A stretch of 64,000 bases of DNA from Prevotella sp. (GCA_017458225.1 JAFTFX010000006.1:76103-140102); one strand, 5' to 3'. Counted from the first letter of the stretch, positions 57,082 to 64,000 are shown. Program-made: numbers and translations. Notes: generated by a model not told the origin, from the letters alone.

Positions 57082-57773
57082 AAATTTGTGCAAAGATACG
57101 AAAAAAAGGTTGTAACAAACGAGTGATTTTGGAAGATTAACGCAATTCGACCTGAAATAAGACCGCTCGGCGACGATAGGAGACGCTTGCCAGAGCAAGA
57201 ACATAAAGGAAACTCCGCGAAGCGCCTGAGCACCTGTAAAAGAAAAGAATACGCGAAGAACGAAAAAGTAAAAAAATGAGGAAACGCAAATTGGGAGAAT
57301 TGATGAAAGAGGCTACACCCTCTTGCCGCATCACAGTGCGGCATTCCCTGCAAGCAGGGATTTCACCAGATACAATATGTGTCCTATGGGAAAATGGGAT
57401 AAACTGGGGAACGTAACTTGTACATGATTTACAAAAGTCGTTCAGCACTACCATTTCGAAATTTAAGTGGTAGCGTCTTTATTTGCTCTTCTGTGATGAA
57501 GAACGAAAATCCTTGCAGTCGGGTAAATAGATCTTCGCTGTTAGCTTTTAATTGGTCCTCCATCTTCGCAAATTCTTTGCAAACGTAGCACATTATGAGC
57601 ATAACACCAAGGAAAAAAGAATCCACCGCTCGGCCTTTGGACGCTTTCTTAAAGAAAGAAGGCTTGCGGAAGTGCATTTTTTTGTATAAAAGTGGTTAAG
57701 ATTACGAATAATTGTGTAACTTTGTGGTCAAAAATTGGCAAATCGCAATAGAGACACCTAAAACAGAGGAAAT

Positions 57774-58061
57774 ATGACAAAAGAACAACGGACGGCAATA
57801 GCTCGCATTATCAGCGATATGATCAAGGCTGATAATATCATTGAGGAGAGCGAGATACGGGACATGAAACGGCTCATGTCTGAGTACTCCATCACTCACC
57901 AAGAGATGAGCGATGCCCGCAAGATTCGTTTCTCTTATGCTGTCAATACGTTGAAGGAATTGTCTATCAAAAAACGAAAGGTGTCCTCACAAGCCTCCTT
58001 TTGGTTCCTTCGTAGCGAGGGGGTAGCAAGGAGCAAGCGTAGAGCGAGTTTGGGCCTTTAA
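57774..58061 (+). pseudogene. Truncated TerB-like protein
   Basis: IISDMIKADNIIEESE matches the TerB AD..I...E motif. After about 57980 the frame runs into unrelated GC-richer sequence. Promoter TAACTTTG at 57717-57724. Confidence 0.5.
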
Positions 58062-58149
58062 GAGAAGCTTGATAGAAATAGGAAAGAGCATGAATACACC
58101 TTGAATTGTGCATGAAGATAAAAGAAGTAAAAACGAATAAAGGATATTT

Positions 58150-60060
58150 ATGTCGATTATAGATTTCATAAAAGGCCTGTTTGGTGAAGAGCCCAATCAG
58201 AGTTCCAACGTGGTTGAAGACAAGTCTGTAAACTCGGACGTTATGATTGACAAGACTCCGACCTTAGAGAACGTGGCTCGTTTTGTCATCAAGACAAGAA
58301 AGAGTAAGTGCGCAGATATCCAAAGGTATTTCCAAATAGGTTATAAACTTTCTGGGGACTTGATGTCGCAACTTCAGCAGAATGGAATTTTGGATAACGC
58401 TAATAATGTGTTGGTTGATACCAATATCTCTGATGATAAATTGACGAAATTGTTGAGTCAGGCAACACCAGATACAATAGATTGCCATCATGTTTCATCA
58501 GCCTCCGGTTTTGAGATAAAAATCATCTCTTCATCCCCCATCAACATTGAATCATCCATTAAGACCTATATACCGGGGCTATCGAATTATGAGTGCTACA
58601 TAGTTTTCGATACAGAGACTTCTGGTTTGTCACCCCAACAAGGCCATGAGATTCTTCAGATTGGAGCAGTAAAATACAACACTCGCACAGGAGAAACAAT
58701 TGATACTCGAAGTATCTACATTAAGCCATCCCCCAATTGTGTAATAGAACCAGCTGCTTTGCGTGTCAACGGTATAGATATAGAAAAGTTGAAGCAAACA
58801 GGCGTATCAAAAGGTGAAGCAATCAAAACTTTCATCGAGTTTATAGGTTCCTACCCTCTTTTTGCATACAATGCGCCTTTTGATATGCGATTCTTGAAAT
58901 CCACATGCGAAATGGTTAACGTTCCTCTACCGACAAATCCTGTGTGTGACGTCCTTGCGATGGTTAGAAAACTATCTTTGCCAACTGAAAACAACAAGTT
59001 AGGAACCATTTCTGAACATTTCGGATTTACAGGAGGTAACTATCACGAAGCCATAAAGGACTGCGACGCTACCAATTTCGTGCTCCGCAAAATTTACTTC
59101 AATGAAGAAGGAAAGCCTGTCGGTAAATCGGTTGACAACATACACTTAAACCTTCACAAAGGTGGGGTCGCGCTTGAGCCTTACATTGAGCAAAATATGT
59201 TGGAACTTGACGTGTATTCTCGCTTAACAGGTGAGTACCTGTTTACTAAAAACATAAGGCAATGTGCAGAAAAGGGAATATACGTATCCTATAATACCGT
59301 AAAGGATTTAGAAGGAACTTTGTGGACCACCGATTATGGCATTAGGTTGCATGAAGAGTCGAGAGGAAAGTTAGAGCCTGATATTTATTATGGAAAGCGC
59401 ATCATCGACGTATATTCCAGAACGACTGGTGAATTCCTTTTTACTAAGACATTGGAAGAATGTGCAAGTTTAGCTTCGTCTTTATCACAAAAGAAGATTG
59501 CAAATGCCACAATAGAAATGAGTTGGCTAGGCGAATATGGTTTCCGGGCTCACGAACAAGAACCGCAAGCCAAGATAGAGCGTGACTTCACCTATGGGAA
59601 GCGTCTCATTGATTGCTATTCCAAAGAAGGAGATTTTCTGAAAAGATATGATAGCATTTCCGACATCGTCACCGAGCTGGGCTTTGCTGGCGATAGTCCC
59701 ATCAAGACCATGCTTCGCCAAGACAAGATAACGTATAATCTGAATGGGTATATTTTTATCTATGCGACATCAGAACAGCCAATTCAGAAAATCGAAGGTG
59801 CATCATTGACGAAAGAGGCGAAGCGTCCCATATACGTATTCGACATTGACGGAAATTATCTCAATGTTTTCCTGAAGATAACAGAATGCACAGCGGCGTA
59901 TGGCTTACAAGCCGAAGGAGTAAGAAGATGTTTATCTGCGGGCAAGCCTCAGTATAATGGCTACATCTTCAGATATTCCAATACGCCATTGAGTGAAGAA
60001 GAATTGGCGGCTGCCAAGGAGAATTACGCTTATCGGGAAACGTCTAAAGTAACAAACTAA
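58150..60060 (+). CDS. Fusion of an FtsK-gamma-like wHTH, a DEDDh 3'-5' exonuclease and four NUMOD1-like repeats
   Basis: VARFVI..RKSKCADIQRYFQIGY..SGDLMSQLQQNGI; VFDTETSG, YNAPFD and HEAIKD; repeats such as IDCYSKEGDFLKRYDSISD...GYIFIY. Confidence 0.8.
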   Translation: MSIIDFIKGLFGEEPNQSSNVVEDKSVNSDVMIDKTPTLENVARFVIKTRKSKCADIQRYFQIGYKLSGDLMSQLQQNGILDNANNVLVDTNISDDKLTKLLSQATPDTIDCHHVSSASGFEIKIISSSPINIESSIKTYIPGLSNYECYIVFDTETSGLSPQQGHEILQIGAVKYNTRTGETIDTRSIYIKPSPNCVIEPAALRVNGIDIEKLKQTGVSKGEAIKTFIEFIGSYPLFAYNAPFDMRFLKSTCEMVNVPLPTNPVCDVLAMVRKLSLPTENNKLGTISEHFGFTGGNYHEAIKDCDATNFVLRKIYFNEEGKPVGKSVDNIHLNLHKGGVALEPYIEQNMLELDVYSRLTGEYLFTKNIRQCAEKGIYVSYNTVKDLEGTLWTTDYGIRLHEESRGKLEPDIYYGKRIIDVYSRTTGEFLFTKTLEECASLASSLSQKKIANATIEMSWLGEYGFRAHEQEPQAKIERDFTYGKRLIDCYSKEGDFLKRYDSISDIVTELGFAGDSPIKTMLRQDKITYNLNGYIFIYATSEQPIQKIEGASLTKEAKRPIYVFDIDGNYLNVFLKITECTAAYGLQAEGVRRCLSAGKPQYNGYIFRYSNTPLSEEELAAAKENYAYRETSKVTN

Positions 60061-60136
60061 CGTATCAGGGGGATGAACTAGGAGCAGACAACTGCGTTCT
60101 TTATTGAATGAGCAAGAAAGGTAGATATTAGTATAG

Positions 60137-62587
60137 ATGCGAGATAAGAAACCATCCGGATATTGGACTTATGACAGATGCTTTGCTGAGGCGAAGAAAT
60201 ATAAGTTAAGGGCAGATTTCAAAAAGAATGCTGCCGGAGCTTACGATGCTGCAAAAGACAAAGGATGGCTAATAGAATATACATGGCTTGAATCTCGCCC
60301 GCTGAAATGGACTTATAATACCTGCATCGAGGAAGCTAAGAAGTATAGAACACGCTCGGAGTTCAGTAAAGAGGCAGGTTCTGCATATAATGTAGCTCGC
60401 AAAAATGATTGGCTAAAAGATTACACATGGTTTGAAGAACTACAAAAGCCCGGTGGCTATTGGACTTATGAGACTTGTTACGAGGAAGCAAAAAAATACA
60501 AGTCAAGAGGAGAATTCTCAAAGAAATCTCAGACAGCATATAATCGAGCGAGAATTGAAAATTGGTTAGATGATTTTAGTTGGTTAGCATCTGATGCGAC
60601 ACCCGCAGGCTTTTGGACTTATGAGAAATGTTTTGAAGAGGCGAAGAAATATAAGACAAGAATCGAGTTCAGTAACCAAGCAGGCTATGTCTATAAACTG
60701 ACACAAAAAAACGGCTGGTTTGATGATTATACTTGGCTCGAAAAGAAATTCGTATGGAGCTTCGAGAAATGTTCAGCTGTCGCTAAACAATACAAGACTA
60801 AAAAAGATTTTAAACAGGGAAATAGTGGCGCATATTCTGCTGCGTCAAAGCATGGTTGGCTTAAACATTTTGACTGGTTGAAAAGTAGTCGAATAAATGT
60901 AATAACCGATGAAGTTGACAATGTTTATATGTACTATTTTGAAAACTTCAATGCTGTCTATATTGGTAGGACTGTGAACATAAAGCGACGTGACAGAGAG
61001 CATGTCTTCAATACTACAAATGATTCCGTTGCTAAATTTGCTTTTGCACATGATTGCCCTGTTCCTCCAATGATTCTTTTAGAAGAGAACCTGTCAATAG
61101 AGAAGGGACAGGAACGTGAAGACTATTGGCGAAACTATTATGAAGAACATGGCTATAAAGTGCTAAACAAAGCAAAAACGGGTGTTGGCATAGGTTCCAT
61201 TGGAAGTATAGGTGGTATAAAGTGGACGAAGCAGGCTTGTTATAATGAGGCAAAGAAATACACCCATCGAAAGGAATTTCAACGAGAAAGCGTTGGTGCT
61301 TATACACAGGCGTTGAAGAGAGGCTGGCTGAAAGACTATACATGGTTTGAACGGCCTAAGAATTGGAATCAGATATGGGATAGGGATACTTGTTACGAAG
61401 AGGCTTTAAAGTATACAAAACTATCACAGTTCGAAAAGAATAGTTCTGGAGCCTGTAATGCTGCACGAAAGCACGGATGGATAAAGGAATATACATGGTT
61501 CGAATCAACCTCAAAACCTGTAGGTTATTGGACATACGAGAAATGCTTTGAAGAGGCAAAAAAATTCAGAAGCAGGAATGAATTTAAGAAAGGAGCACAG
61601 TCTGCTTACGGAGTAGCACTTGCAAAAGGTTGGCTTGATGACTACACATGGTTTGTGAGAAAGCGAAAGTCCCATGAAGATTGGACTTACGAAAGATGTT
61701 ATGAGGAAGCAAAAAAGTATAAGACAAAAGCAGAGTTTGCAAATGGAAAAGGCTCTGCTTATGCCTATCGAAAATCGCGTTTGAAGGGTTGGATTAATGA
61801 TTTTGATTGGCTTGAAGAGCCATCGAATCCTTTGGACATTTGGACGTATGAGCGGTGTAAGGAGGAATCCAAGAAACATAAAACGAAAGCCGATTTTATA
61901 AAAGAGGCCCCTGCTGCATATCGAGTATCCCTAAAGTACGAATGGATTAAAGACTTCGTATGGCTTGAAACCAGGAAATTATGGACTTATCCAGAGTGCT
62001 TTTCATTAGCACAAGCCTATACAACCAAGAAAGAATTCAGAAAAGCGCATCCTGCTGCCTATACTGCTGCGAAAAGATATGGTTGGCTGAAGGAATTCAA
62101 ATGGCTTAAGGTTCAATTTAAGGAACCATATTGGACAAAAGAGCGTTGTTATGAAGAAGCGAAGAAATATTCGTCGAAGCAGGATTTCTCTCATTCAAGC
62201 GGAGCATACAGAGTCGCTTATATAAACGGATGGCTAAATGATTATGATTGGCTTGTTGATACACAGTTAGAAAAAAAGCATATCAAAAAGAAATGGACAG
62301 AAGAGGCTTGTTTCAATGAAGCCCAAAAGTACACTTCTAAAAGTGCATTCAAAAGTGGCAACGAAAGTGCTTATTCAGCAGCCTTGAAAAGTGGATGGCT
62401 AAAGGATTATACTTGGTTTACAGGATTAAGAATACCAGAATCATATTGGACGTATGAGAGATGTTGCGAAGAAGCCAGAGAATGTAAGACTAAAAAGGAA
62501 TTCTATCAAGAGCATGATCGTGCATATAGAATTGCATTGCGCAATAGGTGGATGGATAAGATAGCAAAAATCGTAGGATGGAAATGA
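60137..62587 (+). CDS. GIY-YIG-like nuclease flanked by 14 tandem ~50-aa Trp-rich helical repeats
   Basis: Repeat consensus WTYE.C.EEAKKY..R.EF.K....AY..A.K.GWL.DY.W, 5 copies before and 9 after the central NVY-x10-YIGRT...RRDREH...E...LN domain. Confidence 0.8.
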   Translation: MRDKKPSGYWTYDRCFAEAKKYKLRADFKKNAAGAYDAAKDKGWLIEYTWLESRPLKWTYNTCIEEAKKYRTRSEFSKEAGSAYNVARKNDWLKDYTWFEELQKPGGYWTYETCYEEAKKYKSRGEFSKKSQTAYNRARIENWLDDFSWLASDATPAGFWTYEKCFEEAKKYKTRIEFSNQAGYVYKLTQKNGWFDDYTWLEKKFVWSFEKCSAVAKQYKTKKDFKQGNSGAYSAASKHGWLKHFDWLKSSRINVITDEVDNVYMYYFENFNAVYIGRTVNIKRRDREHVFNTTNDSVAKFAFAHDCPVPPMILLEENLSIEKGQEREDYWRNYYEEHGYKVLNKAKTGVGIGSIGSIGGIKWTKQACYNEAKKYTHRKEFQRESVGAYTQALKRGWLKDYTWFERPKNWNQIWDRDTCYEEALKYTKLSQFEKNSSGACNAARKHGWIKEYTWFESTSKPVGYWTYEKCFEEAKKFRSRNEFKKGAQSAYGVALAKGWLDDYTWFVRKRKSHEDWTYERCYEEAKKYKTKAEFANGKGSAYAYRKSRLKGWINDFDWLEEPSNPLDIWTYERCKEESKKHKTKADFIKEAPAAYRVSLKYEWIKDFVWLETRKLWTYPECFSLAQAYTTKKEFRKAHPAAYTAAKRYGWLKEFKWLKVQFKEPYWTKERCYEEAKKYSSKQDFSHSSGAYRVAYINGWLNDYDWLVDTQLEKKHIKKKWTEEACFNEAQKYTSKSAFKSGNESAYSAALKSGWLKDYTWFTGLRIPESYWTYERCCEEARECKTKKEFYQEHDRAYRIALRNRWMDKIAKIVGWK

Positions 62588-63339
62588 ATATGAGAAAAGA
62601 GATAACTATAAAAGATGCTCTATCAATGGTAGAGAAGTTTCAGAAACTGACTGAACTCCGTTACAATGATACTATGTCTAATCGTTTTGTTGCATTGAAC
62701 GATTTGACTAGAAAAATCAGAGCGTGTTTTAATGCTATTTTTCTACTTCCACTCGACAAGTATGATGTATTGTATGTACCTGCAAATTTAATGTATCGTT
62801 GTATTATTTCAGATTTGATGACCTCGCTGTTTATTGCTGTAATAGATGATTCACAACTTGATGAGGTTATACACGTCATGGATATTGATTTTACAAAATC
62901 ATTGAAGAATTCCCTAGAGGCGAATATTGAAATTCGCAAAGAAACCTATCCGGACGAATCTGAAGATTTTGATGAACTTAGTAAAAACTATCAAATTAAG
63001 CTATATGATGACTTAATGAATTGTCTTAGCTCAGAAAAAGGTGAAGAGTGGGAAATAAAAAAAGCAAATTCCGTCTTTATTAATGGCATTGCTTACACTG
63101 GTCGGATTAGACAAATGTACGACATTCTAAAGACACTTGACTATGAAGTGAGAGCCCTTGCTTCTGTCTATCAATATTACAAACTTTTTTCCCAGTCAGA
63201 ACACTATTCTTTGAAGGGACGTATTTTTAACTATAAGCAGGAGCTATACGAAAAGTATTATAACAAGATACACGGCTATATCTACCTCATAGAGAGGTAT
63301 ATCTATAATAGATACGGCAAACAGGTGACACAGAATTAG
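62584..63339 (+). CDS. All-helical protein, DUF5677/HEPN-like
   Basis: ANLMYRCIISD and YQYYKLFSQSEH (Y..(L/F)S...H) motifs; ATG 62584 overlaps the upstream TGA. Confidence 0.55.
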   Translation: MNMRKEITIKDALSMVEKFQKLTELRYNDTMSNRFVALNDLTRKIRACFNAIFLLPLDKYDVLYVPANLMYRCIISDLMTSLFIAVIDDSQLDEVIHVMDIDFTKSLKNSLEANIEIRKETYPDESEDFDELSKNYQIKLYDDLMNCLSSEKGEEWEIKKANSVFINGIAYTGRIRQMYDILKTLDYEVRALASVYQYYKLFSQSEHYSLKGRIFNYKQELYEKYYNKIHGYIYLIERYIYNRYGKQVTQN

Positions 63340-63386
63340 ATCCTTAGTCTCTACATCTAATGATAATAATAGAAAATAATCTCAAT

Positions 63387-64000
63387 ATGGCAAAGAACGA
63401 TAATAACAAAAAGGTTGACATTAACGAAGTTGCTATTACTTTTAAGGTTGATAGTGATGTTGTTAACAAAGTACGTAGTGGTGAGATTACGCATCTTGTT
63501 TGGGAAATCGATGAAGATAATCAAAACCTGATTCTGGAGACCATTGACGGAAATCTGGTGTTGGTTACAGAAGAGATGCCAACCACTTTTCATGGCTGCT
63601 ATCTTTATAATGGTGGCGTATTTCCGTACGTCATTAAGGGTTCGCTCAACTTCATCGTCCTTGACGGAGGCGCAGAAGGCTGTCTTACACGCATTATTGG
63701 CATGGAAACAGAGCCGGGCACCCGTTTCAATTATCAAGGGCCAGGCAAACCTATCGAAGAAGACCCTGATGGCGACAGTTGTGTTTGGGAAGTAGCCTTT
63801 GAGGTGATACCTGTGCCGCAAGAAGCGAAAACGCATCTGCTGAGGTGGAATCCTACAATCAGTTCGTTTACAGAAAAGGACTATGAGGAATGCGTGGCAA
63901 ACATGGAAAATGGAATGTTCCGTATGAACTGGAGCATCCGTGAATGGGAAGAGGCCAGAAGGGGTGACATGTTCTATATGATGCGTATGGGCGATGATAA
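63387..64000 (+). CDS. Partial protein with ASCH-like and EVE/PUA-like segments, running off the window end (absent from the ORF track)
   Basis: Open frame of 204 codons from ATG 63387: MAKNDNNKKVDINEVAITFKVDSDVVNKVRSGE...THLLRWNP...NWSIREWEEARRGDMFYMMRMGDD. Confidence 0.65.
   Translation, partial: MAKNDNNKKVDINEVAITFKVDSDVVNKVRSGEITHLVWEIDEDNQNLILETIDGNLVLVTEEMPTTFHGCYLYNGGVFPYVIKGSLNFIVLDGGAEGCLTRIIGMETEPGTRFNYQGPGKPIEEDPDGDSCVWEVAFEVIPVPQEAKTHLLRWNPTISSFTEKDYEECVANMENGMFRMNWSIREWEEARRGDMFYMMRMGDD

Follow-up and report, generated by a model that had tools for sequence, protein, structure and literature searches.

A predicted GIY-YIG nuclease of homing type, armed with arrays of a three-helix module, in Prevotella and phage relatives

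What does a nuclease-like domain do in the middle of 14 copies of a helical repeat? The question is raised by an open reading frame (ORF) at 60137–62587, plus strand, in a 64,000-nucleotide (nt) stretch of Prevotella sp. DNA (GCA_017458225.1 JAFTFX010000006.1:76103-140102; the window, from whose first letter positions are counted), which encodes a protein of 816 amino acids (aa). The original prediction had seen in it a candidate repeat-programmed DNA-recognition nuclease. The best explanation, to which we give a probability of about 0.65, is a repeat-armed GIY-YIG nuclease of homing type, predicted to grip DNA with its modules and to use them to help pick its target. This reading builds on what is established for the family: its fold and catalytic residues, its architecture, its size, its optional insertion beside core phage genes, and the exchange and duplication of its modules.

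A GIY-YIG core between two arrays of one module

Translation bears out the 14 repeats first proposed, five before and nine after a central domain:

60164–60886, plus strand: N-terminal array of five three-helix modules (R-5 to R-1), from repeat starts and the predicted model
60914–61177, plus strand: GIY-YIG nuclease domain, residues 260–347, from PF01541, the I-TevI fold and kept residues
61223–62575, plus strand: C-terminal array of nine three-helix modules (R+1 to R+9), from repeat starts and the predicted model

The N-terminal repeats start at 60164, 60308, 60461, 60614 and 60755 and the C-terminal ones at 61223, 61376, 61529, 61682, 61841, 61982, 62132, 62294 and 62447, with a start-to-start period of 47–54 aa. 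All 14 hexamers that had been quoted around an AY motif agree with the translation. Conservation does lie at the protein level, as had been claimed: the repeats share on average 44% aa identity in pairs (range 20–62%), and the best within-gene DNA identity of each is 56–67%. The protein has a predicted isoelectric point of 9.3. Its gene has a guanine-plus-cytosine (GC) content of 0.39 and a third-position value (GC3) of 0.35, against a GC of 0.51 for window positions 1–57200 and a GC3 of 0.68 for a housekeeping gene. The ORF is covered with zero differences and zero joints by contigs that come from one study's four runs, which argues against misassembly; they are not independent support, since that study is possibly the source of the window's own DNA.

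In the centre of the protein, the Pfam GIY-YIG family PF01541 matches residues 263–340 (E 1.3e-4) with 22.6 bits, exactly the curated cut-off. We modelled the whole protein with AlphaFold2 from a 117-sequence alignment (predicted local distance difference test (pLDDT) 87, predicted template modelling score (pTM) 0.34). Residues 260–347 of the model, a three-stranded sheet with flanking helices, align to the catalytic domain of I-TevI (1ln0) with Z 9.8 and a root-mean-square deviation of 2.4 Å over 84 residues. In a fold search with this domain, the rows after I-TevI include PD-T4-3 (second, Z 6.6), UvrC and T4 EndoII; Foldseek with the full-length model returned nothing at E ≤ 0.001, with I-TevI at E 1.5–2.3. 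The superfamily is defined by GIY-N10/11-YIG together with Arg, Glu and Asn (PMC2988022; this and the other published sources are cited from extracts). Y264 and Y275 are 11 residues apart, fitting that definition. Y264, Y275, G277, R285, H289, E328 and N344 are each kept in 340–349 of the 353 aligned family domains (R285, E328 and N344 in 345–349); roles of R27 and E75 in I-TevI have been described (PMC12774661). By motif and modelled fold the gene product belongs to the GIY-YIG superfamily, in line with the residue order first noticed in the central domain, and it is predicted to have nuclease activity.

The architecture recurs widely. A two-repeat profile matched 7,783 of 1.84 billion cluster representatives (50% identity) at E ≤ 0.001, so the repeat occurs far beyond chance. 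Among 371 family proteins that we collected, 347 have the layout modules-nuclease-modules, 324 of them with modules on both sides, shares that are biased towards this layout because the collection was seeded with it. Arrays hold 0–12 modules per side, periods are mostly 47–55 aa and linker length varies. Both the model and this survey agree with the proposal that three-helix repeats flank the nuclease, and they do so in variable numbers on each side. A quick tree of the nuclease domains was mostly unresolved, and no claim is based on it.

In its motif, its catalytic Arg, Glu and Asn and its fold, the nuclease is like I-TevI and the T4 Seg-type enzymes (PMC2988022, PMC12774661). I-TevI has an N-terminal nuclease and a single C-terminal DNA-binding arm made of a zinc finger and a minor-groove helix along with a helix-turn-helix (HTH), according to the same extracts; unlike it, the present family has its nuclease in the centre in 324 of the 371 proteins, and each arm is built by repeating a single helical module. 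In 2010 it was described as unknown how both strands are cut by a monomeric GIY-YIG enzyme (PMC2988022), and a nuclease held between two binding arrays could bear on that problem.

PHROG 20046, a phage family, matches over nuclease and repeats at E 9.5e-93 but is an unannotated cluster of unknown function. Atlas clusters list GIY-YIG or no common family, and matches to the module in BFVD are only uncharacterised or unnamed phage proteins. PF05265 (DUF723) is listed for many of 119 homologues and a CxxHG motif, typical of the DUF723-type zinc finger, is present in 49 of the 371 family proteins; a Pfam scan of the 816-aa protein gave no PF05265 match. The tails of several family proteins look NUMOD1-like by eye. 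The CxxHG motif, DUF723 and such tails are parts that known homing nucleases have too, and they speak for the homing reading. A second, distant repeat-GIY-YIG gene, of 410 aa, lies in the same genome (G000:C34, L009:988-2223, minus strand; profile probability 96.7%).

The module and its predicted DNA-facing surface

Each module was modelled as three helices with a short, Trp-anchored tail, joined to the next by a low-confidence linker, so the modules likely fold independently, as beads on a string. The contrast between a pLDDT of 87 and a pTM of 0.34 for the whole protein points the same way, as does a pTM of 0.51 for a module pair modelled separately.

Searches with the module returned little. 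Pfam, NCBIfam and PADLOC gave no repeat match, a PDB sequence search nothing significant (best E 0.84 and 0.15), a fold search none of 48,161 chains at Z ≥ 5 (best row Z 3.4) and a second structure search nothing at E ≤ 0.001. Rows for Myb, Rap1, Reb1, Fis and NtrC appeared only at Z 2.1–2.2, within noise. An absent structural match alone does not make the module a new fold. Precomputed annotation assigns PF26058 to 30 of the 119 homologues and to some repeat-only proteins; this entry may be a name newly given to the module or to a relative of it. No description of this module was found in a literature search that left subscription journals mostly uncovered and supplements outside its scope, and the extract of PMC1564403 lists no such helical array.

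The wider design has a precedent. T5orf172 homing endonucleases carry repeated CapR, DUF723 and DUF4379 zinc-finger modules, DUF723 being a predicted DNA-binding zinc finger like CapR (PMC10448857). What they have in common with the present family, as far as the extract goes, is a nuclease of the GIY-YIG superfamily, DNA-binding modules arranged as beads on a string, degenerate repeats that recombine and a specificity proposed to be retuned in this way; a DUF723-like module is also present in some proteins of the present family. Unlike theirs, the present module has three helices and only one conserved Cys, and it lacks the CxxC...CxC motif; a fold search places the nuclease with I-TevI, and arrays of up to 12 modules per side flank it. 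The original prediction knew of no characterised family of this kind, which our searches bear out for the module itself but not for the wider design: the helical module and the central nuclease are new here, and repeated zinc-finger modules on homing nucleases had already been published (PMC10448857).

The module also occurs with other domains (P0299, P0360, P0319, P0336 and P0035): Pfam identifies an ADP-ribosylglycohydrolase fusion, and by eye these proteins show a T5orf172-like or PD-(D/E)XK-like nuclease and a helicase-like region.

The composition of module columns, taken from 977 non-redundant modules out of 2,015, points to a DNA-binding face. Asp and Glu reach at most 12% in columns 15–33, column 18 excepted, and crowd on helix 1 (56–82% at columns 4, 8 and 9) and in the tail (51–83% at columns 37–38). 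Lys and Arg account for 73% at column 16, 58% at column 21 and 67% at column 32. Because the face formed by helix 2, the turn and helix 3 is acid-poor and basic, each module likely binds DNA through it. The most variable columns (28, 24, 20 and 17) all lie on this face, and column 28 holds 46% polar residues of base-contact type (N, Q, S, T and H). Columns 24, 25, 28 and 29 are positions 1, 2, 5 and 6 of helix 3, the positions through which HTH proteins read bases. Variation had been placed around the AY helix, which columns 24 and 28 bear out; helix-2 columns 17 and 20 are nearly as variable, so the claim holds in part.

TALE and PPR arrays are tandem helical repeats with a conserved scaffold, variable positions and variable repeat number, and the original prediction had likened the module to them. 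Closer comparison does not support the analogy. Variable positions cover at least seven module columns, and in 3,154 modules each of three candidate column pairs holds 244–288 residue pairs, of which the four commonest account for 11–25%; with no small alphabet of this kind, we reject a two-residue code of TALE type. The near-identical repeats within one protein that mark TALE arrays are likewise missing at a mean of 44% aa identity (20–62%), linkers vary in length, and no rigid superhelix is predicted (pTM 0.34). Free scrambling of modules between array positions is rejected as the main mode too, since 116 of 129 modules in 12 close genes are nearest to the module at the same array position of another gene.

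Judging by mosaic identities, a crossover in the last module and one duplicated pair, module blocks are exchanged by recombination and duplicated in nature. Between the window gene and L010, identity is 92% in R-5 and R-4 but falls to 51–78% in the other parts. L011 and L012 share 89–94% identity in R+2 to R+4 and 75% in the nuclease, and L011 and L054 share 92–96% in R-2 to R+1 and 59% in R+4. L056 is a further natural mosaic. In the last module, the AY motif marks the crossover, in the following segment:

62521–62587, plus strand: 3' half of the last module, common to a distant repeat-GIY gene in G115 (L037)

What G115 (L037) has in common with the window is the final 66 nt of the nuclease gene together with the gene for the 253-aa protein downstream. 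In the viral gene L151, two adjacent modules have identical variable segments; its close relative L174 lacks them.

Phage relatives and what the nuclease may do

The family is present in phages, where 27 of 50,697 records match it. In four related Rhizobium phages there are four insertions, all of them optional and all beginning directly after a stop codon: before the primase gene, after it, between the dCMP deaminase and helicase genes, and before the portal gene. Each insertion is absent from other members of the group, which have an empty site. At three of the four sites the neighbouring gene shows carrier-specific local divergence, which fits free-standing homing endonucleases; these lie between conserved genes and have distant cut sites and co-conversion (PMC2988022). 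Over the first 120 nt of the portal gene, 17 sites (14 synonymous) separate carriers from non-carriers, against 40 over the next 1,180 nt, a contrast that counts as one event because the two carriers are identical. In the 5' 700 nt of the primase gene, the carrier is 49–84% identical to non-carriers, which are mutually 86–99% identical over most of that length, and the last 60 nt of the gene differ between carriers and non-carriers of the downstream insertion. Like the T4 Seg-type genes, as the extract describes them (PMC2988022), these relatives are optional and intergenic, stand beside conserved genes, have empty alleles and, at three of the four Rhizobium sites, are accompanied by flank divergence in carriers.

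Uncultured phages add many more loci. A protein-seeded scan of viral contigs found nothing, but DNA motif scans did, giving 131 viral loci, of which the 85 examined hold 71 distinct repeat ORFs. Among 65 neighbours, hand-picked from 132, 24 are core genes for replication or the virion (terminase, portal, capsid, protease, helicase, primase, recombinase, ligase and baseplate), 7 are other enzymes, 3 other endonucleases and 31 unnamed. In copies at unrelated sites, homology ends at the start and stop codons (L017/L018, 95%).

Two viral settings deserve separate mention. In the uncultured phage of L192:2803-6566, the two ORFs on either side of a family member both match the terminase large subunit, the family member itself being on the opposite strand, which suggests a terminase gene that is split or interrupted by an intervening sequence. 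At one recombinase/exonuclease junction, L143, L175, L187, L203 and L213 (and L140 and L164) have differing module layouts; since all address one locus, the five related large phages lend themselves to a comparison of their modules.

Under the homing reading, the modules would fold singly, strung together by short basic linkers, and turn the acid-poor helix 2-turn-helix 3 face towards DNA, six to eight exposed residues contacting backbone and bases. R+1, next to the nuclease and the most constrained module, would set the register of the cut, and the outer modules, on either side of a break in the middle, would add affinity and a specificity tolerant of mismatch to any one site. In phages, the gene that neighbours the nuclease would be cut in the copy carried by a rival genome; with the carrier as repair template, the nuclease gene and its flanks would be copied into that genome, and recombination between degenerate repeats would retune the target. 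Given where the phage relatives sit and that related genes have traded module blocks, the modules likely grip DNA and help choose the target, with a specificity that is likely distributed and context-dependent, not one module to one base.

Several points weigh against this account. The exposure of the variable residues was read from helical periodicity and composition only. The portal contrast is drawn from non-independent sites, and differences cluster a second time at nt 414–435; at the dCMP deaminase/helicase site we found no clear local divergence in the helicase gene; and the tally of 65 phage neighbours lacks a background control. At the window locus, the upstream gene has one empty allele (L035), and close to the junction it is not recoded (90–95% identity over the last 200 nt), and the neighbours in bacterial islets resemble defence candidates, which fits domestication. 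In variable columns, the ratio of nonsynonymous (pN) to synonymous (pS) differences is 0.16 over the 103 tree edges that join near-identical alleles; this purifying selection, like that on R+1 (pN 0.08, pS 0.77), counts in favour of the account, but 0.16 does not fall below the values of other surface classes (0.14–0.32). At 80–85% scaffold identity (89 edges) the ratio is 0.52 against 0.22–0.38 for other classes, a contrast inflated by picking allele pairs on scaffold identity. No positive selection on variable columns was detected, ratios remaining below 1. From these ratios, the variable residues are constrained within lineages and change between them, a pattern compatible with specificity without being proof of it.

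Some alternatives concern how much each module reads. A transferable code like that of zinc fingers, in which every module would read its own 2–4 base pairs (bp) through helix-3 positions 1, 2, 5 and 6 plus helix 2, with little influence from its neighbours, and could be swapped, is compatible with homing and strikes us as unlikely. Its appeal comes from the most variable columns lying on the acid-poor face, from the match of columns 24, 25, 28 and 29 to the base-reading pattern of HTH proteins, from conservation of variable columns in close alleles (0.16) with faster change at distance (0.52 against 0.22–0.38), and from natural block swaps that yield intact genes; it has to contend with the lack of a small alphabet, with the inheritance of 116 of 129 modules by array position, and with linkers whose varying length leaves no fixed register. 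Equally doubtful is the boldest form of that idea, with the module as a new, naturally shuffled, programmable unit whose helix 2-helix 3 face reads a few bp, and with an array on each side of a monomeric GIY-YIG core so that the cut falls in the middle of a long target. If it were true, thousands of natural arrays, many beside likely phage target genes, would supply data for learning the code, and transferable modules would make a new protein-programmable DNA-binding scaffold. Similarly improbable, from the opposite side, are modules that serve largely as non-specific grips or spacers giving avidity, with the nuclease and R+1 choosing the target and the outer modules drifting. This reading would suit the span of array sizes, 0–12 modules per side. 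It would also suit R-2, R+2 and R+3, whose variable columns are only 10–40% identical among 26 close homologues against 90–100% in R+1, and the pN of 0.59 and pS of 0.65 in R-2 (R+1: 0.08 and 0.77). It sits badly with purifying selection on variable columns among close alleles, with conservation of the far module R-5 (pN 0.12) and with the 46% of N, Q, S, T and H at column 28.

The remaining alternative applies to the chromosomal copies of Bacteroidales, which might have been domesticated as an anti-phage or anti-mobile-element nuclease and travel as islet cargo rather than by homing; we rate it somewhat below the others. Islet neighbours that match PADLOC candidate or defence models speak for it, together with an intact gene and no recoding at the window locus, and the second fold match, PD-T4-3 (Z 6.6), is a GIY-YIG restriction nuclease. 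The median array is 9 modules in 13 bacterial genes against 4 in 59 viral genes, a contrast biased by the different queries with which the two sets were gathered. Yet the protein itself has no PADLOC match and no conserved partner gene was found across loci, other homing-type nuclease genes gather in the same islets (HNH-NUMOD4, L012), and a target tens of bases long would probably be too narrow for broad defence. The module is very common, and the nucleases equipped with it, likely homing enzymes, form a large family found in phages and in gut Bacteroidales. Small phage members with three modules, such as gene 071 of Rhizobium phage RHph_Y21, and known carrier and non-carrier alleles make identification of the target directly testable.

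The chromosomal islet of the window gene

The window gene lies in a low-GC islet between two other genes:

57700–64000, no strand: low-GC accessory islet (GC 0.36–0.42), continuing past the window to the contig end, from GC and genome matches
58150–60060, plus strand: upstream neighbour, with an FtsK-gamma-like domain, a DEDDh 3'-5' exonuclease and a weak NUMOD1-like tail
62578–63339, plus strand: downstream neighbour, a 253-aa protein of unknown family, overlapping the nuclease stop codon

Beyond the window the islet continues with a RhuM-family gene and an XRE-type HTH gene before the contig ends. Only 2 of 60 relatives had a match, one of them a fragment, and 32 of 400 genus genomes match some part of the islet, each part separately (two candidates scored per genome). 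The 16 loci from the genome collection come from gut or rumen assemblies or are unlabelled; 15 are from Bacteroidia, and their neighbours are almost all different.

The neighbours at the window locus are accessory genes, though an empty upstream allele exists. Behind the upstream exonuclease gene there is no nuclease gene in L035, and there are other family members in L020 and L036; with the junction not recoded, no homing signature was seen at the window locus. DEDDh exonuclease genes were present in 11 of 84 loci, a count taken without background that includes duplicates and two loci found through the window's own exonuclease gene.

With the 2023 PADLOC library, the nuclease protein had no match at E ≤ 0.001. 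The RhuM gene of this islet matches the RhuM/PDC-S05 model at E 1.5e-216, and neighbours at related loci match SIR2-like, DUF2971/PDC-S31 and Fic/PDC-S72 models. The HNH-NUMOD4 gene of homing type noted above belongs to the L012 islet.

A direct repeat of 56–63 nt flanks the islet; as other contigs hold related copies of it, we rejected it as an attachment site. No transfer RNA gene was found near the islet. Promoter and terminator scans came out near chance level. A dispersed intergenic repeat of 60–150 nt, 78–92% identical between copies (window 57085–57225; G000:C9 142339–142484; C21, C29 and C12), flanks the islet, recurs on other contigs, often near their ends, and overlaps the upstream region of a gene that looks BamA-like by eye.

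Smaller observations concern other parts of the islet and related loci. At 57774–58061 there is a 95-aa TerB-like fragment, apparently truncated, with related DNA in other genomes. From 63360–64000 on to L001:8368 runs a gene for a 301-aa protein with no Pfam match, tentatively EVE-like by eye, whose C-terminal part resembles a protein near another family member (L022, 38%). A 67%-identical orthologue at L011:7004-8680 stands among higher-GC genes in an assembly labelled Selenomonas ruminantium, reflecting either cross-phylum transfer or mis-binning. In L006/L008 (G036), a family member appears to be interrupted: its ORF continues into the transposase gene of an insertion sequence, on the far side of which more modules follow.

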